Of a stretch of DNA of 64,000 nt, positions 20,112-48,528 are shown one piece after another (the stretch's first letter is position 1; every line of letters begins with the position of its first letter). The stretch is taken from NCBI GenBank assembly GCA_050253075.1, contig JBFWJS010000002.1, positions 416,001-480,000 of the forward strand, given 5' to 3'. Both the position numbers and the translations under genes were made by a program. Under the pieces are notes generated by a model. That model did not search any database. It saw only the letters and a program-made list of their open reading frames with translations, and was not told the origin of the DNA. Source of the stretch: Deferribacterales bacterium. Its GTDB lineage: Bacteria; Chrysiogenota; Deferribacteres; Deferribacterales; Geovibrionaceae.

Positions 20112-21830
20112 TTAGTTTTTCAGTTTGAAACGTGTAACCAGTTCCTCAAGCTCGGAGGCAAGATGGCTGAGCTGTTCCACAGCCTGCGCCGTCTCGTTTG
20201 AAGCGAGAGAGTTGTCCGCAGTTACCTGTGAGATGGTCTCTATGCTCTGAGCCATCATCTCTGTAGCCGTGGCCTGTTCTTCTGTCGCTCTGGCGATCAT
20301 GCCGACCTCGTTTGAAACGTTGTCCACATTCTGCTTGATGATGTCGAGAGCTTCTTTCGCCTCTTCTGCTTTTGCCTGTCCCTGCTCTACCTGCTGAACA
20401 CCCTCATGCATTCCCATAACGGCGCCGCCTGTATCAGCCTGAATGGCCTGTATCATCTCTGTGATCTCTTTCGTAGCGTTCACAGTTTTCTCAGCGAGCT
20501 TTCTAACCTCATCGGCAACAACGGCGAAACCGCGTCCGTGCTCACCCGCTCTGGCGGCCTCGATGGCAGCGTTAAGGGCGAGGAGGTTTGTCTGGTCGGC
20601 GATGTCGTCGATAACCTGTATGATCTGTCCGATCTGCTCGGATGATTCGCCGAGCTTACGCACGGTTACCGCAGATTCAGAGACAGTATCGGCTATCTTC
20701 TCCATCATGTTTCTTGTCTCTTCCACAAGGTGGTGTCCTCTGTCCACTGAGTCGCTCGCCTCTTCGGCACTGTTGGAAACGTTCGCCGCATTCTGTGCGA
20801 CCTCTACGACGGTAGAGTTAACTTCCTCAACAGCGGAAGCAGTGCTGGCAACCTGCTCTGATTGATCATGAGCACCTCTTGCTATCGTCTCTGCATTGCT
20901 CGAAAGCTCTGCAGATGTAGAAGCGAGTGATGCGATGGAGTCGACAACAACGCTCATTGCGTCGTTAACGTCGTTCACCATCTTATTCAGTGATCTGGCG
21001 AGGTCGCTCACCTCGTCGGCATTAGTAGCCTCCACCTGCACGCTGAAGTCACCGTTGGCAACTTTCTGCAGGGCAGCCCCCATAGCCGTAAGCCTTTTGA
21101 ATATCAGCTTTTTGTTTATCACCACCAACACCACAAGAATCATTATGGTGATAGGTATGAATATCATTGCCGATACAAAAAGGTTTTTATAAATAGCCGC
21201 ATAGATAGGTCCTGTCGGCAGGAATATCTCGAAAGCTCCGTGAAGCTCTCCCGCACGCCAGTTCTCCATCTTTACGCCGGTAGGGTCGAGTCCTTCATCG
21301 TTCCCCCACAGCTCTTTGGAGTTCGCAGGGTCACCGTGGCAGGTTTCGCACATTTCAGCAAGGCGCACAGATTTATAATATCTGAGCTGTTTACCTTTTT
21401 TGTCATGCAGTACATATTCGGGAGTGGTCTTCCCGCCTTTATCGAGCTTTTTAAGCTCTGCAAGTGCGACAAGGTCAACTTCGTCCGGTACGTTTTTCGG
21501 GTTACGCGGAGAGATCTTCGGCACTTTAAATTTAAGTCCGGCCTCTTCCGATTTCAGCTCCATAACTTTCATAGTGCCCACGATAGGCACGGTCAGCAGG
21601 AGCTTTCCCAGGTCGTCTTTAGTGTTTTCCACATCATAGATACCCTGCTCCATCGCTATTGCCATATACTCGCGTACGCCTTCAGCAGCCAAAACAAAAC
21701 TTCTGGCTCTGGCAATTTCTTCGTCTATGTAGTTAGTCTTCATCTGGAAGAAATTTACAGTAAAGAGTACACCCATACCAAACAACACAGTCACAGCCAC
21801 AAATAGCGTGATCTTGACATTAAGTTTCAT
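20112..21830 (-). CDS. Methyl-accepting chemotaxis protein with periplasmic c-type heme (DUF3365-like) sensor
   Basis: TM1, PRNPKN..CETCH..GELHGA sensor, TM2, [42 protein letters not shown]. Confidence 0.92.
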
Positions 21831-26251: not shown

Positions 26252-27763
26252 TTACTTGTGACAAGTGTTACAAGATGTCTTAGCTTTTTGCTCTTTATGA
26301 CATTTGATGCAGAATTCCTTGTGGAAGACGTTGTTTGTACCGCTTACTTCCGCAGGAACTTCGATCTTAAGTGTGCTGTCGCCTGCTTCTGTGTGGCAGC
26401 TAACGCACTCAAGTCTTTCTGCGTGAACTTTGTGCTCGAAATGAACAGCTGATTTTTTACCGTTAGGAGCGTAACGCTCACCAAGGTTGATAACTTCAGC
26501 GCCTTCAAGCATAGACATAAGCTCTTCAGAGTTTACAGGACCTGCAGGCTCTGCAGCAGCTTCTTCGTGTGAAGCTTCTTCAGCGTGAGCAGCAGGAGCA
26601 GCGTGGTGCTCTTCCTCAACTTCAACAGGCTCTATGTAGTTGTCGAAAGCATCTTTAAGCTCTGCAATCTTCTCAAACATAGCGTCGAAGTATTCAGGGT
26701 TGTGGATTCCTGCGGAACCGTCTTTCTCAATAACTCTTACTATGTAGATGATCTGATTAGCTATCTCGAGCTTGCCGTGGGAAGCGCCGTGACGTGCCTC
26801 CATCATAGCATCGCGAAGTTCCTGAGCTGCAGGAAGCTTCTCGTTGAATGCTTTCTGTGTGTCAGCCATGATATCTGCGTATGACGCATCGTGGCATGTA
26901 GCACATTTATCTGAATTAGGTCTTATAAAAGCAGACTCGTGACAGTCGGAACAGCTGAGATCAGCCATATACCAAGCATCGCCTTCTACGCCTTTAACAT
27001 AAGTACCTTGCTGGATTCCTTTTTGACTAACGTGGCATGCTGCACAGTCGTCGTTCGCAGGAACTGCAACTGTCTCACGAACTTCATCGTGGCATGCAAA
27101 GCATGTTTCCATTTCAGGCTGATGGAATCTCTCGCCGCCGTGGCCAATGCCAAGGTGACAGTTCATGCAGGAAAGACCTGCATCAATGTGTGCCTGGTGG
27201 TTAGGTTCAACACCTGCACTGACGCCTTCTGTGAAAACATCGTTACGGCCGAACTCTTTTCTATAGGCAGGCATTACAACCTCGTCCATATGTCTGAATT
27301 CGCCGGCAACTTTGATTATTCTGTTTCTGCGCATCTCTGCGTTTGCTGCATCAGAGTGGCAGAATGCGCAGGCTTCCATAGATGAAGCGTGCTCTGCACC
27401 CTCTACCGTAGTAGCAAAGTGTGTAAGATGCTCTATAACTTCGTCTTCCGGAGTGAGGATCTCATGATACATGCTTCTCATACCGGCCACAACGTGAGCA
27501 TTAAGGTAACCTTTTATACCAGGTGCGCCGTGACAATCAAGACAGCTTACACCAGCTTCGCTGTGTACTCCAATTCTGTAAGTGTAGTATTCGCCTCTGA
27601 CGGCAACTTCTTCTTTTGGGTGACATGTTTTACAGAACTTTGCAGTAGATGTCATGTGCATAGACTGAACTGCTGTAAAACCGCCGCCGACTATTATTAT
27701 AGCGATGATGATAGTAAAGATGAGTGGGTCTTTAGCGCTGAATTCTTTAATTTTTTGCCACAT
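26252..27763 (-). CDS. Membrane-anchored multiheme cytochrome c (11 CxxCH; NapC/NirT-like N-terminus, c3/c7-like C-terminus)
   Basis: N-terminal TM, TSTAKFCKTCH; CKTCH, CLDCH, CAFCH, CMNCH, CFACH, CAACH, CSDCH, CATCH, CVSCH, CIKCH, CNTCH. Confidence 0.9.
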   Translation of the reverse strand: MWQKIKEFSAKDPLIFTIIIAIIIVGGGFTAVQSMHMTSTAKFCKTCHPKEEVAVRGEYYTYRIGVHSEAGVSCLDCHGAPGIKGYLNAHVVAGMRSMYHEILTPEDEVIEHLTHFATTVEGAEHASSMEACAFCHSDAANAEMRRNRIIKVAGEFRHMDEVVMPAYRKEFGRNDVFTEGVSAGVEPNHQAHIDAGLSCMNCHLGIGHGGERFHQPEMETCFACHDEVRETVAVPANDDCAACHVSQKGIQQGTYVKGVEGDAWYMADLSCSDCHESAFIRPNSDKCATCHDASYADIMADTQKAFNEKLPAAQELRDAMMEARHGASHGKLEIANQIIYIVRVIEKDGSAGIHNPEYFDAMFEKIAELKDAFDNYIEPVEVEEEHHAAPAAHAEEASHEEAAAEPAGPVNSEELMSMLEGAEVINLGERYAPNGKKSAVHFEHKVHAERLECVSCHTEAGDSTLKIEVPAEVSGTNNVFHKEFCIKCHKEQKAKTSCNTCHK

Positions 27764-29910: not shown

Positions 29911-30047
29911 GGGCTAAGATGAAGGCAAAACAAGTTTGCTATTCTCTGCTTAGCTGCGAAAGCTCCGTCGTCGTACTCCTCGCAATGACAAAAGGATGTC
30001 ATTACGAGGAACAAAGTGACGAAGTAATCTTCCAACGTATTTCGTTA
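29911..30047. repeat. Left REP-like doublet / direct-repeat arm of GIY-YIG cassette
   Basis: GGGCTAAGAT..[41 nt]..GCTCCGTCGTCGTACTCCTCGCAATGAC-spacer-GTCATTACGAGG...GAAGTAATCTTCCAACGTATTTCGTTA. Confidence 0.85.
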
Positions 30048-30338
30048 ATTCAGAATATCTTTATACAAATCCCGCCAGTCAGGATTCATGCTATTAATGA
30101 TGTCTTCCTTCTTCTTTCTGCTGCCGCCTTTGATTTGTTTCTCTCTGGCAATAGCATACTCGATATCGTCGAAAACTTCATAGTAAACAAGCTGGTCTAC
30201 GGAATATTTCTTAGTAAAACCGTCAACCAGCTTATTCTTATGTTCATATACTCTTTTAACTAAATCAGAGGTAACGCCAGCATACAAGACAGTTTTATCA
30301 AAATTTGTCAGCAGGTAAACGTAACCTCTTTTGCTCAT
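30045..30338 (-). CDS. Stand-alone GIY-YIG nuclease family protein
   Basis: GYVYLL, LYAGVTSDLVKRVYEHK, FTKKY, LVYYE, AIAREKQIK, NPDWRDL. Confidence 0.93.
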   Translation of the reverse strand: MSKRGYVYLLTNFDKTVLYAGVTSDLVKRVYEHKNKLVDGFTKKYSVDQLVYYEVFDDIEYAIAREKQIKGGSRKKKEDIINSMNPDWRDLYKDILN

Positions 30339-31934: not shown

Positions 31935-32156
31935 AATAAACCTCGCAAAACATTTTTACGAATGATACTAAAGTTATCTTCTCAGAACAACAGATTTGTT
32001 AAATTTATCCCTCCGTACAGACATATTCGAATATTCATATAAATGTTAAAGAAATAAATTTTTATGTAAACTTTATGTCGTCAATATGTAAACGTGATGC
32101 TAACATATGTTTAAATTATTCATTATTTCTTATTATTCATTTGGAGGAAACCGCAT

Positions 32157-33590
32157 ATGGCAAAAACGATCGCCATTGAGCCGATCACCCGCATTGAAGG
32201 TCACATGAAAGTGGAGACCCATGTGGAGGGTGACAGGATCACTGACGCCAAAATCAGTGGTCAGATGTATCGTGGATTTGAAAAGTTTCTTGAGGGGAGA
32301 CACCCCGTAGACGCCGCAAGGATAGCACAGAGGGTCTGCGGTGTGTGCCACGAGGTGCACGGTGTCGCATCGATACTGGCACTTGAAGAGCTCTATAAAA
32401 ATCCATCAACTAAAAACGGACATATCCTGAGAGACCTGATCCTCGGGATGCATTTGGTCACAGACCATTTTCTGCATTTCTACACCCTTTCCGTTCCCGA
32501 CTATGTGGATTTCACAAAAATACTGGAATACAAGGGCACAGACACAAACATAAACACACTCAAAAATTGGGTCATTAAGACCAAACCTGAATTCGTTTTA
32601 AAAAGAAATACCGGAAACTACATCTCAGACACAAACACGTGCCTGACGATGATCAATAATTACTTTCAGGCATTGAAAGTCCGCTCCAAAGGCGCATCGG
32701 GCATGGCTCTCATAGGTGCGAAAGCTCCCTTCAGCCACGCAGTGCTCCCCGGCGGAGTGACGACAGACATCACACCGGACAGGCTGATGCAGTATTTCAA
32801 TGTACTGGAAGAGGTCAAGAACTTTGCCATCAATCATTACATACCCGATGTTATCGAGCTGGCATCCAGATATCCTGAATATTTCAACATAGGCGTCAGC
32901 TACGACAGCTTCTACGCCAATGAGACATTCAAGGCTCTGGGCGAGCCCGTTTTCAAGGGGGGCGTGGTGATGAACGGCAGTGACAGGTCGTTCTCTTTCG
33001 AAAATGTGAAAGAGTATTACGACTCCTCGTTTTACAACCCTTCGGGCGATCCTCAGCCCGGCAAATCAGGCGCATACAGCTGGACAAAGTCTCCACGCTA
33101 CAGCGGCGAGCCCGTAGAGGTGGGACCTCTCGCACGGATGATAGTGAACAAAGACCCGTACTTCCACCAGACTATGAAGAAGCTGGGCGGAAAGGTGCAG
33201 TCATCCACAATGGCACGTCACGTGGCCAGATCCGTAGAGTCGAGAAACATCATCGACCACCTGTATAAGCTGCTCGACGCATATGTCATAGGCGAGTCAA
33301 ACATCAATCAGGTCGACTTCGCACAGAAGGTGACAGGCACGGGCACAGGCTTCTCCATAGCTGCGAGGGGCGCACTGATACACCAGATAGAGGCGAGAGA
33401 AGGGAAGATCACAAGATACAATATGATCGTTCCGAGCACATGGAACTTCGGTCCTATGGCTCAGGGTAAGATAGGCGTGGCGGAAAAGGCGCTCGTAGGT
33501 ACACCGGTGAAATACAGCGGTGAAAACTCCATAGAGGCCGGACGTGTAATCCGAAGCTATGACCCGTGCACAGCCTGCTCTATTCATTAA
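32157..33590 (+). CDS. [NiFe] hydrogenase large subunit (no C-terminal maturation extension)
   Basis: EPITRIEGH, RGFE, L1 QRVCGVCHEVH, HFLHFY, YSWTKSPRY, EVGPLAR, RGALIH, VPSTWN, L2 RSYDPCTACSIH-stop. Confidence 0.96.
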   Translation: MAKTIAIEPITRIEGHMKVETHVEGDRITDAKISGQMYRGFEKFLEGRHPVDAARIAQRVCGVCHEVHGVASILALEELYKNPSTKNGHILRDLILGMHLVTDHFLHFYTLSVPDYVDFTKILEYKGTDTNINTLKNWVIKTKPEFVLKRNTGNYISDTNTCLTMINNYFQALKVRSKGASGMALIGAKAPFSHAVLPGGVTTDITPDRLMQYFNVLEEVKNFAINHYIPDVIELASRYPEYFNIGVSYDSFYANETFKALGEPVFKGGVVMNGSDRSFSFENVKEYYDSSFYNPSGDPQPGKSGAYSWTKSPRYSGEPVEVGPLARMIVNKDPYFHQTMKKLGGKVQSSTMARHVARSVESRNIIDHLYKLLDAYVIGESNINQVDFAQKVTGTGTGFSIAARGALIHQIEAREGKITRYNMIVPSTWNFGPMAQGKIGVAEKALVGTPVKYSGENSIEAGRVIRSYDPCTACSIH

Positions 33591-33602
33591 AACGAGGGAA
33601 AA

Positions 33603-34559
33603 ATGTCTATAAACTTAAATAGAAGGGAGTTTCTCAAGCGGTGCAGGGATGTCTCCGTGCTGCTTTTCGGAAGCTCTGTTTTCACACCGGAGATAGCCGA
33701 AGGATTCACCAAGCTCTCCGAAGCGGAAAGACCGCAGGTAATTTTCATACAGTCCCAATGCTGTACAGGATGCAGTATATCTGCAACATACGGCAATGAA
33801 TCAGACTTCATAGACTTTATAACTAACCTGATAAGACTGCAGGTTCACCCGAACATATCTTTTGCTCAGGGCATCGACTACATGAGGCAGATAGAGGAAG
33901 TTTCAAACAGCGGTCCTTTCTATCTGGTCTGCGAAGGGTCTATCCCCGCAGGGATGAAGGAAGCGTGCGTATTCGGCGACGAACCGATGTATGACTATAT
34001 GCACAAGCTGATGAACAAGGCAGCGGCAATAATCTCATCCGGCACATGCGCCTGCTACGGCGGGATACCCGCATCGAACCAGAATGTCACCGGCGCTATC
34101 CCAATAGACGAATATATGAAACGCACAGGCGTGAACAAGCCTATGATAAAGATCCCCGGGTGCCCCATAAACCCCGACAGGCTGATGGGAACAGTGGCAT
34201 ACATCGTAGCAACGGGCAAGCTCCCCGAGCTGGTGGACGGCAAGCCGAAGAAATACTTCGGAGACCTGATACACAACCAGTGCGGACGCTATCAGGCCTT
34301 CAATCAGGGGATATACACCCAGGACTATGACAAGCAGAAGACAAACTGTCTGCTGAAAAACGGATGCCGAGGCCCCGTAACATACTCCGACTGCCCCACA
34401 AGGCGCTGGAACGGAAAGGTGAATGTGTGCATAGAGAGCAATACACCGTGCATCGGGTGCATACACGACGACTTCCCTTTCAACAGTCCGCTTTATCTTT
34501 CCGAAAGCTCGTTTGAGGACCTCTCATGGTCTGAGCTGAAAGAAAAGATGGAAAAATAA
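33603..34559 (+). CDS. [NiFe] hydrogenase small subunit with Tat signal
   Basis: NRREFLK twin-arginine leader; CTGC, CEGS, GTCACYGGIP, PGCP, HNQC..CLLKNGCRGP, CPTRRWN..C..PCIGC; no C-terminal TM. Confidence 0.95.
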   Translation: MSINLNRREFLKRCRDVSVLLFGSSVFTPEIAEGFTKLSEAERPQVIFIQSQCCTGCSISATYGNESDFIDFITNLIRLQVHPNISFAQGIDYMRQIEEVSNSGPFYLVCEGSIPAGMKEACVFGDEPMYDYMHKLMNKAAAIISSGTCACYGGIPASNQNVTGAIPIDEYMKRTGVNKPMIKIPGCPINPDRLMGTVAYIVATGKLPELVDGKPKKYFGDLIHNQCGRYQAFNQGIYTQDYDKQKTNCLLKNGCRGPVTYSDCPTRRWNGKVNVCIESNTPCIGCIHDDFPFNSPLYLSESSFEDLSWSELKEKMEK

Positions 34560-34574
34560 CATCGGGAGATACTA

Positions 34575-36143
34575 ATGAGACAATCTATCAAATTCAAGAT
34601 GGCTCTTTACACTATCATTCCGATGGTGGTCATAGCAGTCGTCTTCATCACTCTGGACACCAGAAAGAACAACCTTGTCCAGAGCTCTATGAATCAATAT
34701 ATGGGATATCTGAAAGATATGATATTCATGTCCACCTTCGACTCGCTGAAGAAGGGGAACATGACAGTATTCTCAGAACACCTGAAAGAAATAGGAAAGT
34801 ACGATCAGGTAAAGGAATTCTCTCTGATAGACCCGCAGGGACTCGTGCATTATTCATCCGACCCGTCTCTTGTGAAAAAGACAGAAGACCTGTCGCACAT
34901 AAACAAGAAAGGCCCGACGGTGATAAACGATCACGGCGAGCAGACATACTTTTACCCTGTGCAGACAACAGAATACTGCCTCCGCTGTCACAGAGAGTGG
35001 CAGGAGGGGACAATAAACTCATTCTATAAGGTGAAGCTGGACAGCTCTGCCATCGGCGCAGTGCGCAACATGTCGCTCTTCAACAACATACTGCTCGGAG
35101 TGGCAGTCATCATGGCTGTGGGCATAGTGATATTCACCCTGCAGAGGCTGGTATTTTCCAGGCTGGAACGTGCAAATGAGATACTCGACGACCTCTGCTC
35201 CGGCGAGGGCGACCTCACCATAAACCTGCCAGTGCGCAGAGCGGACGAGATAGGCACGCTGAGGATGCGCATCAACCAGTTCATCAACCACCTGCGTGAC
35301 ATGATAGGTCAGCTGAAAGAGCGTATCGCAGAGGTAGACGGAGAGATAGGACACATTCAGGGCTCTATGAGCACCATTAACGACGCAGTTCAGGAAAACG
35401 TGAACCACGTAATGTCCATATCGTCATCATCCGAGCAGGTATCCACGACGCTTAATGAAAACATCCAGAACCTGTCATATCTGAACGAAAGCGTGACAAA
35501 CAAGCGTGATTCCATCAGCGAATCCATGAAGAACGTCACCAGCATCACAAAGATGATAGGCGAGATGACGTCTACGGTAGACGTGCTTGCAAACACTGTG
35601 GGCGAGCTGGAAGCCAGATCGAACGACATCACAAACATCACGAGCCTCATCACCGAGATCGCAGACCAGACAAACCTGCTCGCTCTGAACGCAGCGATAG
35701 AAGCAGCCAGAGCAGGAGAAGCAGGACGTGGATTTGCAGTGGTGGCAGACGAGATACGTAAGCTGGCGGAGCGCACAGGCAAAGCCACAAACGACATCAA
35801 GTCCATCGTGAATGAGAATACGAAGACCATCCACAACTTTGTCTTAGAAATTGATAAGAACAAAGAACACGCCGAAGACATGAATCAGGGGATGGCAGAC
35901 CTTGAGAACTTCACCATCGAGGTAGACACCACTATGGAAGACATCTCGAACAACATCGGCACACTAAGCACTATGCTCACAGAGAGCATCAGCGCGCTGG
36001 AGCTGACACTGAACAACATCGAGATGGTGAACTCGAATATGACGCATACCGGACAGATATCGGGCGAGATATCCGACGTGTCTAAGACTCTTCAGGAAAA
36101 GAGCCGCATCATGAAAGAGATAGCGGACAAATTCAAAACCTGA
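34575..36143 (+). CDS. Methyl-accepting chemotaxis protein with periplasmic c-type heme sensor domain
   Basis: TM1, CLRCH (34977-34991), TM2, HAMP (GEGDLT..DEIG), [38 protein letters not shown]. Confidence 0.93.
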
Positions 36144-36162
36144 TATTTGCTTCTTAAATATT

Positions 36163-36194
36163 TCTCCCCGGGCTGTTTGTTCCGCTCGGGGAGA
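36163..36194 (+). terminator. Hairpin closing the hydrogenase-MCP operon
   Basis: TCTCCCCGGGC-loop-GCTCGGGGAGA; weak U tail. Confidence 0.55.
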
Positions 36195-38509: not shown

Positions 38510-38540
38510 AAAAGGCCGGGTAAAACACCCGGCCTTATTT
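38510..38540. terminator. Bidirectional terminator at argJ / island junction
   Basis: AAGGCCGGGT-loop-ACCCGGCCTT with A and T flanks between convergent genes. Confidence 0.8.
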
Positions 38541-39310
38541 TATACATCATCAATTTTTGTCAGAAAATTTGGATACTCCTCAATAGTTTCCGCTATCAGT
38601 TTCTCAACATCCGAAGCAGTCATGACTCCTATGAATCCTCTGCCGACACTTTTACGTTTATAATAGCCGGTCTTCGTTGCAAGCTCATCAAACTTTTCAA
38701 ATGCTGCGACGCTCCCCTCTATTTCGAATTTACGCACCCATATAGTACTCTTTCTGCGACTTTCTTTTCCGTCTTTTACGAGTACGCCTTCAAATGTTTT
38801 ATCAAAGCGGTAATAGACATTATTAAGCCGTTCTATATAGTGGATAAAAGTGGAACCGGCGTCAAAATTCAGATTACACACTTTTCCGCCGGCTTTGTAA
38901 AAACGGTCAAAGAACGAATCTTCTCCATAGGCGTTTTCAGGAACCTCTGCCGTCAGCTCATAAGCCATACGACCGATAGCTGCTACGGAAACATTTCCGT
39001 CTTCGGAGCGAAAAGATTCTGCCCTTTTTCTAATATATTCTGTAAAAATACCGCAGTCGGAGGGTGTATTATCGGGATCAAAAACTTTACCCCCTGAAAA
39101 TGAGTAAGTGAATGTCGGTACGACCAGTGTGCCTTCTTCTCCGATAACGTCTAAAATAGCTTCATACACCATACGGCATATATCATCCGATCCTTGAGCT
39201 CCTTCAGGTATGCCGAAAAAGCCTATATTGCTATGCGAAAAAAGGATATCGCCTTCGGCCACCCCGAGGTCTCTCAGCGCATTTGCAATATCTTCTTTCT
39301 TATAATGCAT
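38540..39310 (-). CDS. AAC(3)-family N-acyltransferase
   Basis: LGVAEGDILFSHS, EGTLVVPTFTYSF, FDPDNTPSDCG, YGEDSFF, STFIHYIE. Confidence 0.85.
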   Translation of the reverse strand: MHYKKEDIANALRDLGVAEGDILFSHSNIGFFGIPEGAQGSDDICRMVYEAILDVIGEEGTLVVPTFTYSFSGGKVFDPDNTPSDCGIFTEYIRKRAESFRSEDGNVSVAAIGRMAYELTAEVPENAYGEDSFFDRFYKAGGKVCNLNFDAGSTFIHYIERLNNVYYRFDKTFEGVLVKDGKESRRKSTIWVRKFEIEGSVAAFEKFDELATKTGYYKRKSVGRGFIGVMTASDVEKLIAETIEEYPNFLTKIDDV

Positions 39311-39999
39311 TATTTGACTCCGGTGACGATGAACCAGTCAAGAACTTCACCGAAAAGATCGTCATAAATCCTTCCTATCTGGAGCTCTCTGAAATATTCC
39401 TCGAAATAGAACCTGATATATTCCTTTGTGTCAAAAAAGAAATGTACCTGTCCTTTTCTGATATCCTTATCTCTGCCTATCTGAAACAAATGATTTCCCA
39501 GTAGTTTGCAATCACTCTTTATCTTATGGTCGGGACCTGTGGTGCTGAGCAGAAGGCGTCCGCCCGGTTTCAGTACCCGCATATATTCCTGTATGCCTTT
39601 TATAACTCCCGCTTCATTCCCTTCATAGTGAAGGACATTCCATGAAAGCAGATAATCGAATGTATTATCATCGTATGGCAATTCCGTATTTTTCCCGACT
39701 CTTATATCTGTTCCCAGCCCCAGCCCTTCCAGCTTCTCACGAACACTGGCACATATATCTTCAGATATTTCGGTTCCGCTGACCTTCATGCCGAGAGTAT
39801 TCAGAAATACGGTATTATTCCCTATTCCACAGCCCACATCCAGAATACTCTTACCCTCTATCTGGGGTATCGTTCCATCTATGTAGTCACCTTTCAGCAT
39901 TCTGATTATGGTCTCAGACGGATGGCTGAGATTTGTGTTTGCTTCCTGGCCTCTCTTATAAAACGTATTCCAGTCGTTCACCATTCTATCTTTAGACAT
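39310..39999 (-). CDS. Class I SAM-dependent methyltransferase
   Basis: ILDVGCGIG, LPYDDNTFD, RVLKPGGRL. Confidence 0.9.
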   Translation of the reverse strand: MSKDRMVNDWNTFYKRGQEANTNLSHPSETIIRMLKGDYIDGTIPQIEGKSILDVGCGIGNNTVFLNTLGMKVSGTEISEDICASVREKLEGLGLGTDIRVGKNTELPYDDNTFDYLLSWNVLHYEGNEAGVIKGIQEYMRVLKPGGRLLLSTTGPDHKIKSDCKLLGNHLFQIGRDKDIRKGQVHFFFDTKEYIRFYFEEYFRELQIGRIYDDLFGEVLDWFIVTGVK

Positions 40000-40002
40000 C
40001 CC

Positions 40003-40251
40003 TCACCCCTCTAAGTGTTTAGTTATTATCTCGGAAAGACCTGATACCGTAGCAAATTTTCTATCCTGAAAATCATCCTGAGTGAAAGTGATATCAAATT
40101 CCTTCTCTATCGCCTCTATCATAAAGATGACCTCCAGAGAATCGATGATATCTAGCTCGAAATAGTTAGCATTAAACATGTTTTCATCATCAGGGTTAAA
40201 TTTATCTTTTTTGCTGAACCAGTCTGTCAGCCATTGTTTTGTATCAGGCAT
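40003..40251 (-). CDS. Acyl/aminoacyl carrier protein
   Basis: 82 aa acidic protein, IIDSL phosphopantetheine site, IEKEFDITF. Confidence 0.88.
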   Translation of the reverse strand: MPDTKQWLTDWFSKKDKFNPDDENMFNANYFELDIIDSLEVIFMIEAIEKEFDITFTQDDFQDRKFATVSGLSEIITKHLEG

Positions 40252-40264
40252 AATATCTCCAAAC

Positions 40265-40921
40265 TTATTTCTCTATTATAAAGCATCTGGCGGGAGCACC
40301 GTCCCCTTCTTTCAGCTTTAGAGGTGCGGCTATAAGTGTACATTCGCCCTCTTTCGCTTCGGAAAGGTTTGCAAGGTATTCCAAAAGCAGACACTCATTT
40401 CCCAATAGTATTTTATGTATCTTCCCGTCATCCGGCGTACCTCTGCCGTCTTTGGGATTATCTGGCTGGGGAGTGTCCATCCCAAGCAGTTTTACGCCTC
40501 TGTCGAGCAGCAATTCAGCCGCTGCAGGGGTCAGGAAAGCGTGGTCTGTATAATATTTATTTGTCCCGATGTGCTTGTCCCATCCAAAGCGGATTATAAG
40601 TCTTTCGACTTTTTGGGGAATTCTATCCTTTATTTCATCAGCCGTTACGGGGTGGAATTCGGGCACATCAGACATATTCAGCAGAAAAGCATCGCCGACA
40701 AACCTCTCCGGTTCTATCTGCTCTATTGTTTTGCCCCCTTTGATGAAATGCCTGGGGGCATCCATATGCGTACCTGTATGGGTTCCAAATGTAACTTTTC
40801 TGGTTTCTCTATTCTCTATTCCGTGTCTTCCCATCTGGCTTATTTCTACGAAAACGTGCCATGGGGCGCTAAAAGTCTGCATTCCTTCTTCGATTAATAA
40901 TGTAACATCTATTACTTTCAT
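40265..40921 (-). CDS. Cyclase / kynurenine formamidase family metal hydrolase
   Basis: HTGTHMDAPRHF, GMDTP, HKILL, EYLANL, DGAPAR. Confidence 0.9.
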   Translation of the reverse strand: MKVIDVTLLIEEGMQTFSAPWHVFVEISQMGRHGIENRETRKVTFGTHTGTHMDAPRHFIKGGKTIEQIEPERFVGDAFLLNMSDVPEFHPVTADEIKDRIPQKVERLIIRFGWDKHIGTNKYYTDHAFLTPAAAELLLDRGVKLLGMDTPQPDNPKDGRGTPDDGKIHKILLGNECLLLEYLANLSEAKEGECTLIAAPLKLKEGDGAPARCFIIEK

Positions 40922-40923
40922 AA

Positions 40924-41541
40924 TTACCTCTTAGGCATTATAAGCTCTATAGGTATCCCACCGGGAGACCTGAGCATCAGTATAGACAGCTCTTTGCCAT
41001 TTACTGTCAATACGAACGGTTCTGTAAAATCTACCGCTCCTCTCTCTCTAAGCTCCTCTGCATCCTGATTTATATCTGTGCTGATAAATGCTATGCAGGT
41101 AAAGCCAATATCGTCCAAATACATTTTATCTGAATTACCATTTATAAACTTCAGCCTGAATCCGACTCCGGAGAATCTGTTCTTATAAACTAGAGAATCA
41201 CCGGCATCTTCGCTAAACCCGTTTATATTTTTGAAAAAACTCAGCTCACCAGCCGCATCCTGAGTTTCTATTATGATGTAATCCTCTTTTATCTTTAGCT
41301 TTTCCGCTTCTGTCCTATGTTCAGCAGAGCGATGGTGTGTCACTTCCACGGGTATCCCAGCAACACCGTCTTTATAATAAGTAATGCTGTGGATATCACT
41401 ATATTCTCTGAGAAGATGTTTCTTCGCAGGCGAATTGAGCAATTCGTGGCATCTGAATATTGGTTCTTTCCCATTTAGAAAAGACGGAAGAGCCCCTTCA
41501 TCGTTTACCTCATATGCTATATGATCTACCGCAGCTATCAT
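40924..41541 (-). CDS. VOC/glyoxalase-like protein
   Basis: VDHIAYEV N-terminus; CIAFISTDI..LRERG..RSPGGIPIELI C-terminus. Confidence 0.55.
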   Translation of the reverse strand: MIAAVDHIAYEVNDEGALPSFLNGKEPIFRCHELLNSPAKKHLLREYSDIHSITYYKDGVAGIPVEVTHHRSAEHRTEAEKLKIKEDYIIIETQDAAGELSFFKNINGFSEDAGDSLVYKNRFSGVGFRLKFINGNSDKMYLDDIGFTCIAFISTDINQDAEELRERGAVDFTEPFVLTVNGKELSILMLRSPGGIPIELIMPKR

Positions 41542-42899
41542 AACATCTCTTTCAGCTTATTTTTCAATATCTTACCGTTCTCATTCCGAGGCATGTTTTC
41601 TATCTGTATAACAGACTGAGGCACAGCGTCTGCGGGCAGATGTTTCCTTACAAACTTTATTACGTCTGCACAGTCCAGCTCTCTGTCTGATTTTACAAAC
41701 CCTATGACATCTTCTCCCCAGAACTCACTTTCAACACCGACAACACATGACTCCTCTACGCCGGAGTATTTCTCCAGAGCCTGCTCCACAGCAGAAGGAC
41801 TTATGTTATACCCGCCATGTATTATTATATCCTTTTTCCTGCCGGTGATATAGAGCGAGCCATCTTCCAAATGTCCTATGTCGCCTGTTTTAAAAGGCAT
41901 ACTGATTTTATCATCCAGCTTAAAGTAACTTTCGCATACATATTCCGTATTTATCAGCAGCTCGTCTTCATCCGGCTCTATACTAACCCCGCCCAGCAGT
42001 TCGCCGACAGAGCCTTTTCTATTATTTTCAGGGGTATTGACCGAAACCAAGAGTATCTCAGACATACCGTAACTTTCTAGACAATCTATGCCAAACTTAT
42101 CTTCAAAAGGCTTTCTGACCACATCTTTCAGACTGGCTGTCCCCACGAAAACGTACTTCATATCTGTGGAGACCTTCTTTATTACCTCTTCTGACCTTGT
42201 TACCCTTGTCACGAGGGCAACCATGCTGGGGCTCATCCATATGGTGTTGCAACTATGCCTCAAACCTTTTTCCCAAAAAAACATGGCAGAAGCGGCACTG
42301 AACTTATCAGAAATAACAACCTTTCCCTCTGCACAAAGGGGAGACAACACCGTATTCAGAAATCCAGCCATGTAGCTCATAGGCATCACATGGAGCATGA
42401 CAGTTTTTTCATCGAGCCCTGTCAGATCGTTAAATGCTTCGACGTTGCCAATCATCCTATCCGCTGTAAAGCAAAGTCCCTTAGGCTTTGAGGTAGTGCC
42501 GGATGTGTGAAATACAGCAAATATATCATCGTCAGAAATATCAGGTGTGCTGTGAGCTGTTTTCAGCTCATATTCGTATCTGTCATCTATAACAAAAGCC
42601 GGTTCGACATCCACCAAAAGTCCTTCGGTAAATGATTCAGGCATATCAGGATTCATAGGGAATGCAGTAAATCCTCCGAACATACATGCAAAATAACTGA
42701 ATATATATTCAGCCGAATTACCGAGGATTATGCCTATCCTGTCCCCTTTTCTTAACCCACGGTCATACATGTCATGCATAATGGAGAAAGAATGATGGAG
42801 GAGGTCTTCGTAGGTATAGCTCACATCGGCAAATATTAAAGCCTCACGTGAGCCGCATTTCACAAATTTATTATAAAGCTCAGATACCTTGCTCTGCAT
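41538..42899 (-). CDS. Adenylate-forming (AMP-binding) acyl/aminoacyl ligase
   Basis: HTSGTTSKPKG, YGMSE, FKTGDIG, GRKKDIIIHGG, PRNENGKILK; start set at MQSKVS. Confidence 0.9.
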   Translation of the reverse strand: MQSKVSELYNKFVKCGSREALIFADVSYTYEDLLHHSFSIMHDMYDRGLRKGDRIGIILGNSAEYIFSYFACMFGGFTAFPMNPDMPESFTEGLLVDVEPAFVIDDRYEYELKTAHSTPDISDDDIFAVFHTSGTTSKPKGLCFTADRMIGNVEAFNDLTGLDEKTVMLHVMPMSYMAGFLNTVLSPLCAEGKVVISDKFSAASAMFFWEKGLRHSCNTIWMSPSMVALVTRVTRSEEVIKKVSTDMKYVFVGTASLKDVVRKPFEDKFGIDCLESYGMSEILLVSVNTPENNRKGSVGELLGGVSIEPDEDELLINTEYVCESYFKLDDKISMPFKTGDIGHLEDGSLYITGRKKDIIIHGGYNISPSAVEQALEKYSGVEESCVVGVESEFWGEDVIGFVKSDRELDCADVIKFVRKHLPADAVPQSVIQIENMPRNENGKILKNKLKEML

Positions 42900-42900
42900 T

Positions 42901-43950
42901 TCACTGCTCACTTCCGTAATAGTGTTTATAAATAGCTTTCCATTTGCCGCCAGGCTCTGTTTCAGAGAGTTTTTTAGCCTCTTCCTCGACCAAGTCTCTC
43001 GGGGCATTCACGATGTCCCGTTTTGTCACGGCTACCATCAGTTTTCTGGGATCCACCCTGTATTTTACGGCAAATTCCTGTATCACTCCCATATAGCTGG
43101 AGTGGAAGAGTGTCAGCCCTGTTATTATATCAAGAGATGTCGTCACCTTGTTCATCATAAGCGGAGCGATGTATTTGTCCCCCAGTTCGCTTAGGGCTAT
43201 AGGGTCAATGTTCATGTCGATCCCTCTGCGCATGAGTATGCATACCAGATGCTCCGTAACGGTATTGCCTGCGCTTCGTCCTATCCCCTGTAAAGAAGAG
43301 TCTATGACAACGGCACCAGCCTCCATAGCATGGAGAGCATTTCCTATGCCTAGCCCCAGATTATTGTGCCCGTGGAATCCAAGCTGTAAATCAGGAGACA
43401 GCTCCTTTGCCGCTTTAAAATATCCGCTTACCTCTTCGGGGAGCATACCTCCGGCAGAATCTACGACATAAACAAGGTCACTGCCGTATTCGGCTACTTC
43501 CTTTGCGTATTTTGCAAAGTCCTCAACACTTGAGGCATATGACTTCATAAAGTTGTTACAAACAAACATTCCTTTCTTTTTAGCCAGCTCTACAAATTCT
43601 TTAGACTGTTCATAATCTGTTATATTTGTTCCGATTCGGATGAATTTCATTCCATAGTCGGCAGCCATTCTCACATCATCCAGACTTGCGATGCCCGGAA
43701 TACAAAACATACCCCAATCCGCCTTTTTAAGTGCTTCTGAGGTGACTTTCATATATGTCTCATCGGTTTCGGCAGAGACTCCGTAGCCCTTTTCAGAAGC
43801 CCCCAACCCTACGCCGTGCCCGACTTCTATCATGTCGATACCGACATCTTCCAGCCCTTTAACTATCTTTACTGTATCTTCTGCGTCGAATTGAAAGTTA
43901 ATCGCATAACTGCCGTCTCTAAGTGTACAATCCAAAATTCTGGGTTTCAT
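42901..43950 (-). CDS. 4-hydroxy-2-oxovalerate aldolase-like DRE-TIM enzyme
   Basis: ILDCTLRDGSY, IEVGHGVGLG, VDSAGGM, GFHGHNNLGL, GIGRSAGN, DmpG-like C-terminal communication domain. Confidence 0.85.
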   Translation of the reverse strand: MKPRILDCTLRDGSYAINFQFDAEDTVKIVKGLEDVGIDMIEVGHGVGLGASEKGYGVSAETDETYMKVTSEALKKADWGMFCIPGIASLDDVRMAADYGMKFIRIGTNITDYEQSKEFVELAKKKGMFVCNNFMKSYASSVEDFAKYAKEVAEYGSDLVYVVDSAGGMLPEEVSGYFKAAKELSPDLQLGFHGHNNLGLGIGNALHAMEAGAVVIDSSLQGIGRSAGNTVTEHLVCILMRRGIDMNIDPIALSELGDKYIAPLMMNKVTTSLDIITGLTLFHSSYMGVIQEFAVKYRVDPRKLMVAVTKRDIVNAPRDLVEEEAKKLSETEPGGKWKAIYKHYYGSEQ

Positions 43951-43985
43951 CTCAACACCTCACTGGTTAAAAGGTTGTTATCTTA

Positions 43986-45185
43986 TCAGATATTATAACC
44001 TTCTGTTCTAATCTGCCCGTGCAGATCCTCTCTGTCAAATTCCGCTTTAGTGCATTCTGCAAGCACTCTGAGAGCGTCGATTATCACATTTGCAGGATAT
44101 GGACCGAGACTGACTCTGACAAACCTGCTAACGCTGTCGCCGTATGCCTCGCCAGGTATGACGGCGATATTATGTTTTAAGAGCAGCAGGTAGGCGAATT
44201 CTATGCTTGTCCCTTTAAAATCGCCGATATTGACCATAAAATAATAAGTTGCTTCGCCAGACATCCTCTTAAGCCCTGCCTCATCCATGAAACGGCTGAC
44301 AGCTTCCCGTTTGTCCAGCGTTGCAGATATCTGTTTTGCGACATCTGCCTGTATCACATCAAAATTCCTGCATAGATACAGCTGTAAGGATGTTGGTGCA
44401 CAGGTTATTATATGCTGATTCAGTTTCAGCACGTTTTCTATCATTGCTTCGCTGGCGATTACGAATCCGAGCCTCCAGCCTGATAGTCCGAAATTCTTCG
44501 AAAGTGAATTGACTATGACTATATTGTCTTTACTGTCCGACAATGAACCGACAGAGCAGAAGCCTTCTCTGAGAAAGTCACTGTAGGCCTCGTCTGCCAT
44601 AAGTATAATGCCATTTTTACGGCATATAGCCAGCAGAGTATTAAGCTCATCTTTTGTATATATGCGTCCTGCCGGATTATTAGGATTGTTTATTAAAAGA
44701 ATCTTTGTCTTATCAGATATATATTCAGTAAAATCCTTTATCTCCGTGTCAAAAGGTATCTGGCGCACTTTGCCGCCGCACAGCTTCGCCTGTTCTGTAT
44801 AGCTGACCCACAAAGGCTCGTGTATGGCAACCTCATCACCGTCATTCAGCACAGACATAAAGACAAAAAATATTGCAGCTTTGGAACCTGCCGTAATGAG
44901 AATCTCTTTTTCAGGGTTTGTCTTAACTCCATATTTTTCATAATATGACGAGAGCTTTTCTCTCAGCTCAGGAAGACCCCTGCTGTCGGAATACTGACAG
45001 CCACGATCAAAATCTTCTTTGCTGACGTTTATCTGTGGGATTTTAAAGAAAGTATCTCCAACGCACAAAGATGTTATTGTTCGTCCTTTGCTGCGCTCAT
45101 TGGTCACGACCTGATTCATATATATAGACATGGATTCGCTGATATTTGAAAGTTTTTGTGAAAATGCGGAATTCTTATCTCTCAT
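43986..45185 (-). CDS. PLP-dependent class I/II aminotransferase
   Basis: GLPELRE, NNPNNPAG, ADEAYSD, NSLSKNFGLSGWRLG. Confidence 0.92.
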   Translation of the reverse strand: MRDKNSAFSQKLSNISESMSIYMNQVVTNERSKGRTITSLCVGDTFFKIPQINVSKEDFDRGCQYSDSRGLPELREKLSSYYEKYGVKTNPEKEILITAGSKAAIFFVFMSVLNDGDEVAIHEPLWVSYTEQAKLCGGKVRQIPFDTEIKDFTEYISDKTKILLINNPNNPAGRIYTKDELNTLLAICRKNGIILMADEAYSDFLREGFCSVGSLSDSKDNIVIVNSLSKNFGLSGWRLGFVIASEAMIENVLKLNQHIITCAPTSLQLYLCRNFDVIQADVAKQISATLDKREAVSRFMDEAGLKRMSGEATYYFMVNIGDFKGTSIEFAYLLLLKHNIAVIPGEAYGDSVSRFVRVSLGPYPANVIIDALRVLAECTKAEFDREDLHGQIRTEGYNI

Positions 45186-45260
45186 ATCAACCCACCTATA
45201 AAAGCGATTATATAGTAATATCGTCCTATTTAGGATTATCTAGAGAGACTTTGCGTTATT

Positions 45261-46541
45261 TTAACGGGAAAGTGTCATGAGACCTTCATCTTTCAGCCTG
45301 CGCAAATGGTCATACAGCTCCCACACGGGAACACCTATCTTTTCTGCTATTTCGATAAGGCTGTTTCTGCCATCGGCATAGGCTATCAGATTCATCATAT
45401 CTCTAAGCTGCATCCCGCTGTCTTTGGTACTTACAGTGGGGTAAAGCCCTCTCTTGCCTAGCTGCGGTTCACAGTATACATTTGTTACGGGTATGCAGTC
45501 ATTTTCTATAGCTTCGATGAATCGAAAGGCTGCGGTATACCCTCCCTGAAGCCCGCTAGGGGATATCATATCCATATTATCAAGGGATGTATGGTATTCA
45601 GGGTATGTAGCATATTTCGACCTCATAATTGAAACAATCGGCAGGTCGACATTTGGACTGCAATACTGCCTTTCGTCACTCCCCCTGTGAAGGAAGCTGT
45701 ACGTCTTATAATTCGGGTCTATGTGCTTCATAATGTGTCTGGCTACCATGTCGGAATAACTGTCTGCATATCTGCTTTCCAGATATGAATAACCCCTATC
45801 ATCACCTATACATGTCAGCACAGCACCGGCTTTTATATTTTTCTTCATTTCATCAATATGCTGAGAAATATATAATATAGAGCCTATTGTCTCAGGTATA
45901 AAAACGAAGCGATAAGAATAACTTCTGTCTTTCATTGCCTGCACGGCCATAGCCAGATATGTGGATACCACAGGTCCTGAAACTTCATTATTACCCATTG
46001 ATGGGTGGCATATGTATGTAGAGATGAATATCTCTTCGGAGGTTTCACCTGGGATATATAATTCGCCGTAATTCAATACACCGTCGAACAGTTCCGAATC
46101 AATATAAACATGGTAATCGCCCTGCTTAAGTTTTTGTCTGTCGCTATCGGCAATACAAAAACCCCAGTTATCACTATAATAGGACGTAATATAGGGTATG
46201 GCATCCGGCATTTCTGGTATAGAGAAAAGGTGTTTCTGTAGCTCTTCCAGAGAGATGGTCATATCCACAGGTACAGAATACCCCATGACATGCAGATTCT
46301 GCTTACTAAAATCACATATAACACTGCCGTCCGGGCATGTTATTCTCGCAGATCGTATGCACCATTCTCTCGGCACTGTCCAGTCAAAGCACCGGGTTCC
46401 GCTGGGTACACTCTGTACCAGCATATCAGGCAGATTCTCTTTCAGGATTGCCAGAGTATCCCTCACCCCCTGCCCTGTGATACTTCTCGCTATGGGGTAA
46501 AGCCTTTCAGCTAATGCATAGAGTTCCTGTCCCTTGCTCAT
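45261..46541 (-). CDS. DUF4910 family aminopeptidase-like protein
   Basis: RSITGQGVRDTL, DWTVPREW, STYICHPSMGNNEVSGP, PETIGS, GSDERQY, YHTSLD, CEPQLGKRGLY. Confidence 0.88.
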   Translation of the reverse strand: MSKGQELYALAERLYPIARSITGQGVRDTLAILKENLPDMLVQSVPSGTRCFDWTVPREWCIRSARITCPDGSVICDFSKQNLHVMGYSVPVDMTISLEELQKHLFSIPEMPDAIPYITSYYSDNWGFCIADSDRQKLKQGDYHVYIDSELFDGVLNYGELYIPGETSEEIFISTYICHPSMGNNEVSGPVVSTYLAMAVQAMKDRSYSYRFVFIPETIGSILYISQHIDEMKKNIKAGAVLTCIGDDRGYSYLESRYADSYSDMVARHIMKHIDPNYKTYSFLHRGSDERQYCSPNVDLPIVSIMRSKYATYPEYHTSLDNMDMISPSGLQGGYTAAFRFIEAIENDCIPVTNVYCEPQLGKRGLYPTVSTKDSGMQLRDMMNLIAYADGRNSLIEIAEKIGVPVWELYDHLRRLKDEGLMTLSR

Positions 46542-48445: not shown

Positions 48446-48528
48446 AGATAAACTCCAATAAACTGTTCTAATAATACTATTAGCTATTCGATAGTTAGTC
48501 AATTCATATATATTTTGTCAAATTTATC

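Follow-up and report, generated by a model that had tools for sequence, protein, structure and literature searches.

The window, a 64,000-nucleotide stretch of a contig from a Deferribacterales bacterium, includes a compact three-gene cluster encoding the large and small subunits of a [NiFe]-hydrogenase and a chemoreceptor (MCP), all on the + strand and separated by gaps of 12 and 15 bp (Table 1), in agreement with the tight co-directional arrangement given in the preliminary description. Each of the three open reading frames is preceded by a purine-rich run resembling a ribosome-binding site. The cluster is flanked by a divergent hemL-like gene and an argC-like gene, both named from reading of their translations, and, as had been stated, it contains neither a cytochrome b gene nor a protease or hyp gene. 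A gene for an 11-heme cytochrome is located 4.4 kb from the cluster. The hairpin noticed earlier after the third gene is indeed stable (-22.2 kcal/mol, z -3.9), although it has no U-run and the terminator scan made no call there; its action as a terminator is thus uncertain. The promoter scan returned 6 sites against 6.0 expected, with none upstream of the cluster on the + strand, and an alignment of 8 upstream regions revealed the ribosome-binding site and no other conserved motif.

Table 1. Features of the hydrogenase–chemoreceptor cluster, in window coordinates
Feature	Position	Strand	Remarks
[NiFe]-hydrogenase large subunit	32157..33590	+	477 aa; Pfam/NCBIfam NiFe large subunit
Small subunit	33603..34559	+	318 aa; Pfam/NCBIfam NiFe small subunit; no TM anchor
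Tat-type leader of the small subunit (RREFLK)	33603..33704	+	probable cleavage near aa 34
C-terminal tail of the small subunit (E-D-L-x-W, W309)	34509..34556	+	placed on helix 1 of the sensor in the complex model
MCP	34575..36143	+	522 aa; heme-c Cache sensor between TM1 and TM2, then HAMP and the signalling domain
Periplasmic single-Cache-fold sensor domain of the MCP	34656..35075	+	
Sensor Met63	34761-34763	+	invariant
Sensor C135-x-x-C138-H139	34977-34991	+	invariant
GC-rich stable hairpin past the MCP stop	36163..36194	+	no U-tract
AT-rich stretch between the large-subunit gene and the divergent hemL-like gene	31935..32156	.	presumed promoter

The large subunit includes the L1 motif RVCGVCHEVH (Cys61, Cys64) and the L2 motif DPCTACSIH. 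The latter is the last metal-ligand motif and is directly followed by the stop codon, i.e., the protein has no cleavable C-terminal extension, a feature that the preliminary description had missed. The chain ends with the His of L2 in 107 of the 110 core homologues, two others being shortened sequences. As the extension is absent, no maturation protease would be needed; only two HycI genes are found in the whole genome, which also has two complete ordinary respiratory hydrogenase operons, each with its own protease. Residues Glu14, Glu42, Arg404, and Asp469 are invariant, and the CxxC motifs of L1 and L2, Glu14, the canopy Arg and Asp, as well as the C-terminal His are conserved without exception in 47 homologues. 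The canopy Pro is substituted (IAARG), with Ala found in the core clade. Judged by its motifs, the large subunit appears to have the residues of a catalytically competent [NiFe]-hydrogenase. Val63 and Leu111 occupy the presumed gate positions of the gas channel in RH-type enzymes, and the RH-type gate is missing.

The small subunit starts with MSINLNRREFLK, a leader that aligns with that of the D. vulgaris NiFeSe enzyme. An RR leader fits the strict pattern in 59 of 64 small subunits, and the motif is visible also in the other five, which are mis-anchored. The best 19-residue hydropathy at the C terminus is 1.18, compared with 1.73 and 1.67 for the two respiratory small subunits of the same genome, which bears out the earlier view of a subunit with a Tat leader (RREFLK) and no membrane anchor. 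The ligands of three [4Fe-4S] clusters are contributed by Cys54/Cys57/Cys149/Cys187, Cys264/Cys276/Cys283/Cys286, and His224/Cys227/Cys249/Cys255. A special proximal cluster with the additional Cys53 and Cys151 was considered and rejected, since these cysteines are not conserved, occurring in 29% and 51% of core-clade members. The C-terminal tail is conserved within the core clade only and is missing from the distant subclade.

The MCP matches the HAMP and MCPsignal families of Pfam/NCBIfam, with a signalling domain of about 40 heptads, and its CLRCH motif (residues 135–139) lies between two transmembrane segments, as expected from the periplasmic location assigned to it before. The model of the sensor domain (pLDDT 89.6) adopts a Cache fold, comparable to WalK (Z 12.1, rmsd 2.8, 126 aligned) and Tll0287 (Z 8.8, rmsd 3.3, 114 aligned). 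A sequence search of the PDB gave nothing significant, the best relevant entry being 3b47 (E 0.41). Against PF21563 (GSU0582/GSU0935) and PF11845 (sCache_heme), 11 and 12 of 47 members gave matches at E≤0.1 (best 0.0017 and 0.011), and the cut-offs of these families are not reached; the window sensor scores 14.2 bits with PF11845 (cut-off 24.1) and is not among the four PF11845 matches of its genome. These four are generic Tll0287-type heme domains encoded elsewhere, and both hydrogenase-linked sensors of the genome form a separate family. Met63 and CxxCH, invariant in 47/47 sensors, correspond to the ligands Met60/His143-144 of the Geobacter sensors GSU0582/GSU0935, as described in PMC8396549. 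The domain is thus a candidate periplasmic Cache fold carrying heme c with a His/Met redox switch. By calculation, a heme near -250 mV, a potential borrowed from elsewhere, would reach half-reduction at about 2 nM H2, and potentials of -200 to -300 mV would place the switch at 0.05-110 nM H2.

The association of the two components is conserved. A heme-c sensor gene is located downstream in 58 of the 59 extension-less relatives with enough flank and in none of 102 extension-bearing ones, among loci that were retrieved by similarity and that, where related, are not independent. The synteny given in the preliminary description is therefore retained, and homologues are neither mostly unlinked to an MCP nor tied to respiratory cytochromes; none of the 59 informative loci has a respiratory partner gene downstream. 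All 64 orderable extension-less loci keep the order large–small, and 14/14 widened loci from a second phylum consist of the large subunit, small subunit, and heme MCP. In 68 genomes of the phylum, 23 large subunits of the clade are spread over 17 genomes; the 22 top sensor matches (E≤1.7e-49) each adjoin one of them, and the 23rd lies at a contig end. A second complete copy of the module, overlooked earlier, is present in the same genome (G000:C2:647881-643562). The output modules of the paired sensors vary (MCP in 45, GGDEF in 5, histidine kinase in 2) and the hydrogenase and sensor stay constant, a pattern that a partnership between sensor and hydrogenase would predict; the module thus serves as an input unit of general use, wired also to GGDEF/EAL proteins and kinases and not only to CheA. 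Clade member L132 lacks a sensor and precedes hypA/hypB, so that the enzyme can exist alone, and related sensors with no adjoining hydrogenase are found at L240 (E 3.5e-46), L241 (2e-30), and L242 (7e-20). The distances of small subunits and sensors are correlated (r=0.92), which is not counted as evidence of binding because neighbours are co-inherited.

Classification of the large subunit with HydDB and a tree, as suggested earlier, yields two placements. HydDB labels two clade members as group 1a respiratory ('anaerobic uptake, cytochrome'), while a quick tree without HoxC, in which NF045518-matching loci stood in for named 1a references, has a branch with SH-aLRT 96 that separates 36 rows of extension-less enzymes from NiFeSe 1a and the remaining group 1 enzymes. 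When HoxC is included, its single row has a long branch and attaches among the extension-less rows, and the AU test did not reject a grouping of the latter (p 0.7). The extension-less enzymes have group 1-like motifs; their motifs, Tat leader, and gene order speak against membership in group 2b or 2c.

Comparison with known systems reveals partial similarity to several of them. Group 1a [NiFe]/[NiFeSe] enzymes (D. vulgaris HysAB, Dm. baculatum) are the best sequence matches among solved structures and share the three [4Fe-4S] ligand sets, the Tat leader, and the lack of an anchor, but they have a cleaved extension, the small–large order, and a cytochrome partner, and the window large subunit scores 340 with NCBIfam HysA (cut-off 780). 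The group 2b RH (Cupriavidus necator HoxBC-HoxJ; HupUV-HupT) is also a two-subunit enzyme adjoining a signal protein, and its small-subunit tail is used in partner binding; a comparable role is plausible for the tail in the window. However, RH resides in the cytoplasm, lacks a Tat leader, follows the small–large order, and signals to a soluble kinase, whereas the window enzyme combines a Tat leader, the large–small order, and group 1-type motifs with a membrane receptor carrying periplasmic heme c. The RH large subunit likewise has no C-terminal extension, according to an excerpt of PMC7294309. GSU0582/GSU0935 (PF21563), D. vulgaris DcrA, and sCache_heme (PF11845) resemble the MCP in the periplasmic Cache domain, CxxCH, distal Met, and fusion to HAMP and MCP domains, although their sequence matches are weak and the excerpts available describe no upstream enzyme partner for them. 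For two HydDB groups, the DGC-linked [NiFe] group 2c and the MCP-linked [FeFe] group C2, H2 sensing directed to c-di-GMP or chemotaxis was proposed from gene neighbourhood; the N terminus in group 2c reads N-R-[VA]-E-G-D in all 15 rows compared, out of 20 in HydDB, and not T-R-I-E-G-H, group C2 is an [FeFe] enzyme, and a periplasmic heme receptor is described for neither in the excerpts at hand.

In the model of the hydrogenase–sensor complex, the distal Fe-S loop of the small subunit sits on the CxxCH motif of the sensor and its C-terminal tail lies on sensor helix 1. The score is 0.64, in a job that differed from the calibration by its own alignments and by the heme riding along; in that calibration, 116 of 157 solved pairs and 2 of 215 mismatched ones attain the mark; the best of 3 controls, which were unrelated proteins and not close decoys, scored 0.00. 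At least 82% of the contacts agree between runs, with partner pLDDT at least 79. This model, of a kind suggested in the preliminary description, thus supports the proposed docking. The modelled interface shows no significant excess of clade-specific residues (6/26 vs 30/248, p=0.11), and the same holds for the C-terminal domain (p=0.17).

A periplasmic H2-sensing input module feeding chemotaxis is, in our view, the probable and best explanation of these data. The NiFe site of the large subunit would be supplied by the Hyp proteins of the genome with no protease, and the paired subunits would exit by Tat; the genome encodes tatC, hypD, and cytochrome c assembly, as well as CheW and flagellin genes. 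The soluble dimer would dock on the Cache dimer of the receptor with its distal [4Fe-4S] loop at the CxxCH heme and its tail at helix 1. By analogy with GSU0582/GSU0935, oxidation of H2 would reduce the heme, to which the invariant Met would bind, passing the signal through TM2 and HAMP. The output would be CheA/CheW and a swimming bias in this genome, and c-di-GMP or a kinase in relatives. The heme could be re-oxidized by the reversible hydrogenase itself or by periplasmic cytochromes. The path from H2 through heme to CheA proposed before is consistent with the synteny (58/59) and the model (0.64); its restriction to CheA does not hold, given the GGDEF/EAL and kinase outputs. We can further speculate, at even chances, that a separate, unrecognised [NiFe] lineage filed as respiratory 1a provides a modular transmembrane receptor with its H2-recognition subunit. 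The enzyme would equilibrate the receptor heme with H+/H2, so that nanomolar H2 would be read directly and would steer the cell.

Part of this evidence would also suit an ordinary soluble periplasmic uptake hydrogenase (1a-like) that feeds a cytochrome pool read indirectly by a co-transcribed redox-taxis receptor: the nearest relatives of solved structure belong to NiFeSe group 1a, two members are 1a in HydDB, the catalytic residues are intact with the RH-type gate (presumed positions Val63, Leu111) missing, L132 has no sensor, and the 11-heme cytochrome is encoded nearby. We consider such an arrangement unlikely, as a respiratory partner is absent from all informative loci, the genome already has two full respiratory hydrogenases, with only weak, partial cytochrome c3 (PF02085) matches, none of them in any cluster, alongside other multiheme proteins, both linked sensors differ from its four generic heme domains, and the model shows direct docking.

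The heme itself might sense NO or CO, the hydrogenase merely holding it ferrous (poising or reset) so that H2 gates the signal. An sCache_heme protein fused to a signalling domain binds NO with slow release, reported as NO-sensor behaviour (PMC12889525), and NO and CO displace Met60 in GSU0582/GSU0935 (PMC8396549); the same Geobacter review, however, concludes in favour of redox-linked signalling via Met binding, PF11845 is matched by these sensors only below its cut-off, and a dedicated two-subunit enzyme in 58 of 59 loci would be a costly way to keep a heme ferrous that general reductants can hold, which makes this role quite unlikely. It is very improbable that the coupled pair reports the periplasmic redox poise via H2 evolution, or transmits a conformational signal without net electron transfer to the heme. 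[NiFe]-hydrogenases are reversible, signalling from RH to HoxJ is not known to be a simple electron hand-over, and the model provides contacts, not cluster-to-heme distances; yet the modelled contact centres on the loop of the distal cluster and on the cysteine that binds the heme, where electrons would be expected to leave, and the heme ligands are invariant.

On the strength of their conserved pairing and of the fit predicted by the model, the probably exported hydrogenase and the heme chemoreceptor of the proposed H2-sensing module are a strong candidate for a bacterial H2-gas receptor. The H2 sensor that has been characterised resides in the cytoplasm and regulates transcription. H2 taxis was shown for a methanogen, with its receptor only hypothesised in the excerpt of PMC3817446, and no description of the module was found in the literature searched. 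If the speculative reading above is true, the module is an extracytoplasmic receptor wired to an enzyme and, within that literature, the first molecular receptor for hydrogen taxis. With only three genes, and occurring in cultured anaerobes, the module is a reconstitutable candidate for H2 sensing outside the cytoplasm, so that the question is directly testable. It bears on how anaerobes locate H2 sources and syntrophic partners, and in some genomes the enzyme counted as a respiratory group 1a hydrogenase may in fact be part of a sensor.

The three genes of the cassette lie as given in the preliminary description, with a [NiFe] large subunit, a small subunit, and an MCP separated by gaps of 12 and 15 bp. 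The ligands are intact, the small subunit carries the RREFLK motif and lacks a C-terminal anchor, and the CLRCH motif of the MCP is located between two transmembrane segments. The hairpin reported after the MCP is stable, but it has no U-run. The large subunit terminates with DPCTACSIH followed directly by the stop codon and has no cleavable C-terminal extension, which accounts for the missing maturation protease in the cluster. According to the available text of PMC7294309, the extension is naturally absent in the sensory groups 2b and 2d, as well as in 4c, 4e, and 4g, and when a membrane-bound enzyme was engineered to lack it, maturation and delivery to the membrane still took place, with a lower yield.

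The genome, whose closest named relatives are Denitrovibrio MAGs (82–87% identity), encodes four group 1-like large subunits and has separate respiratory enzymes. Two of the four bear the extension, follow the small–large order, and are accompanied by an anchored small subunit and an adjoining protease, these being the only HycI genes of the genome; matched by eye, this pair resembles enzymes of relatives filed in HydDB as 1c and 1f. A second cassette (Table) shares 52% identity in the large subunit and 56% in the small subunit with the first, and its MCP, of 639 aa, has a CZB-like domain at the C-terminal end. Several relatives also retain two cassettes, which might serve different ranges of H2. 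Genes for tatC, hypD, cytochrome c assembly, CheW, and flagellin are present. Four Tll0287-type heme domains are found elsewhere in the genome, a set that includes neither of the hydrogenase-linked sensors. The 11-CxxCH protein, which might accept electrons in the periplasm, keeps its position in four other retrieved loci (L004–L007), and the cluster preceding the flagellin gene looks like a flagellin modification island.

Coordinates of features in the window, in its genome (G000), and in retrieved loci (L numbers)
Feature	Location	Strand	Remarks
Second complete large–small–heme MCP cassette (L001)	G000:C2:643562-647881	-	Fourth group 1-like large subunit
Stand-alone MCP	window 20112-21830	-	Tll0287-like (PF11845) heme-c sensor, one of the four in the genome
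Protein with 11 CxxCH motifs	window 26252-27763	-	503 aa; N-terminal transmembrane segment; directly after atpB/atpE-like pair
Small GIY-YIG-like ORF	window 30045-30338	-	hemL to atp interval; named by eye; missing at the aligned position in L004-L005
Methyltransferase-, acyl carrier-, cyclase-, AMP-ligase-, and aminotransferase-like ORFs	window 38540-48500	-	Named by eye; precede flagellin gene
Flagellin gene	window 49334-51700		
IS4-type transposase	L116:5533-6954		In 3' end of small-subunit gene; separates the MCP and removes the conserved tail
Core-clade hydrogenase with no sensor gene	L132:1420-5783		Followed by hypA, hypB, and a hypF-like gene
Sensor-family protein (GGDEF or MCP)	L240:7628-10306		No adjoining hydrogenase
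Sensor-family protein (GGDEF or MCP)	L241:7378-9303		No adjoining hydrogenase
Sensor-family protein (GGDEF or MCP)	L242:7193-9052		No adjoining hydrogenase

The association of the three genes is strict. In the phylum, 17 of 68 genomes (15 of 16 in the organism's own family) hold large subunits of the clade, 23 in total, and a reverse search with the sensor alignment returned 22 matches (E ≤ 1.7e-49), every one adjoining such a large subunit; the 23rd locus breaks off where its contig stops. Three further matches have no adjoining hydrogenase (L240–L242); the genome of L240 holds a cassette elsewhere, which might act in trans with the lone sensor. Matches in a second phylum came from 36 of 401 genomes, 30 of them with retrieved loci; 14 of these were extension-less, and after widening all 14 showed the large–small–heme MCP arrangement. 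Of 241 relatives in a metagenome scan, 80 were kept. The final count took in 198 distinct large subunits, including two added C. necator references, grouped by the extension alone. Gene order was large–small in all 64 orderable extension-less loci (HoxC, the regulatory large subunit of C. necator, excepted) and small–large in all 103 orderable extension-bearing ones. Where at least 1450 bases were available downstream, the script found a sensor at 57 of 60 extension-less rows; its three misses were HoxC, dropped as a reference, L150, where inspection revealed a CxxCH MCP, and L132, a true exception and possibly a reversion to a stand-alone enzyme. A sensor gene is therefore present at 58 of 59 extension-less loci, as opposed to none of 102 extension-bearing rows; a looser search of the latter for any CxxCH protein gave 15 neighbours, none a sensor homologue. 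As the loci are mutually related and their retrieval relied on similarity, no statistical test is claimed. Outputs are swappable, with 45 MCPs, five GGDEF proteins, two kinases, and five cut genes by the script. Distant extension-less large–small cassettes (L111–L113, from genomes G001–G003) have an MCP with two CxxCH motifs and a small-subunit leader with a non-canonical twin-arginine context.

The large subunit was classified with HydDB and a tree, as suggested earlier. The core-clade L1 signature is C-H-E-V-H, and the L2 histidine is the last residue in 107 of the 110 homologues that carry it. In the accessible HydDB table, two CHEVH entries (WP_013011808.1 and WP_013885747.1) are listed as group 1a, "anaerobic uptake, cytochrome". 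The former is identical to the large subunit of L116, where the transposase insertion may have hidden the hydrogenase–MCP link. Identity thinning reduced 160 rows to 95; in a quick tree of 94 rows, with HoxC left out, 36 extension-less enzymes lie on one side of a branch (SH-aLRT 96) parting them from enzymes of the NiFeSe type and of group 1 otherwise. When HoxC is added, its long branch splits the extension-less rows, and their forced grouping is not rejected (AU p 0.7). Depending on where the root lies, the extension-less enzymes may have been derived from within 1a or may form a lineage of deeper origin. The N-terminal motif of group 2c (15 of 20 HydDB rows) is unlike theirs. In the accessible HydDB supplement, rows 1256, 1259, 1262, and 1283 (Desulfobacter postgatei, Desulfotalea psychrophila, Desulfurivibrio alkaliphilus, and Deferrisoma camini), filed as 1a, have L1 motifs and lengths (491–503 aa) like those of the distant subclade, of which, judged by sequence, they are possible cultured members.

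The AlphaFold model of the sensor (pLDDT 89.6) has a single Cache fold, matching WalK (Z 12.1) and Tll0287 (Z 8.8). Atlas features and structure point to PF21563, which we take to be the GSU0582-type family. All 47 rows share Met63, C135, C138, and H139, and since these rows were pre-selected for CxxCH, Met63 is the sole independent result. The modelled complex, made up of the mature small subunit, a pair of sensor domains, and two hemes, received a score of 0.64, versus 0.00 for the best of three controls, all unrelated proteins. Of solved complexes, 116 of 157 attain the mark used, as do 2 of 215 mismatched pairs, and both figures hold only approximately for this complex. Contact agreement between runs was at least 82%, with partner pLDDT of at least 79. 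In the model, the small subunit docks directly on the sensor at the electron exit: the lowest-error contacts are predicted between sensor R137/C138 and small-subunit residues 251–259, a loop with the distal-cluster ligand C255, and between W309 of the small-subunit tail and sensor helix 1. We know of no solved hydrogenase–Cache complex that the model could recall, and PDB searches found none. Among 27 core-clade small subunits, all have R256 and 92% have W309; overall, interface enrichment was not significant. The tail is absent from the small subunit of sensor-less L132, a single case, and also in the distant subclade, though sensors are present there.

We consider it likely that the module is a direct H2 sensor. 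The hydrogenase would be exported, H2 would reduce the receptor heme, a methionine switch would follow, and taxis would be the outcome. In GSU0582 and GSU0935, as described in the available text of PMC8396549, Met60 binds upon reduction and the spin state switches, with potentials of −156 and −251 mV. Using textbook constants and a potential borrowed from the Geobacter sensor, a heme at −251 mV, if in equilibrium, would be half-reduced at about 2.4 nM H2. Much less probably, the heme would sense NO or CO, the hydrogenase merely keeping it ferrous; this reading draws on a 2026 preprint, which in its accessible part reports NO-sensor properties of a signalling-fused heme-Cache protein (PMC12889525).

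A full-text literature search, extending to journals outside subscription, found no published description of a hydrogenase–heme MCP system, in line with the novelty first suggested. The HydDB material available gives only putative [NiFe] 2c and [FeFe] C2 as DGC- or MCP-linked. In a 2025 study of gene neighbourhoods, the 87 MCP genes listed in the vicinity of [NiFe] large subunits receive no comment in the text available (PMC12727194); the accessible portions of a 2026 Deferribacterales paper discuss respiratory hydrogenases only (PMC13186404), and those of PMC6501319 deal with ordinary group 2b. H2 taxis was demonstrated in Methanococcus, where, in the text available, the receptor was not identified (PMC3817446). 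Sensory hydrogenases as such are already known; the module described here differs from them in location and partner, and probably also in origin.
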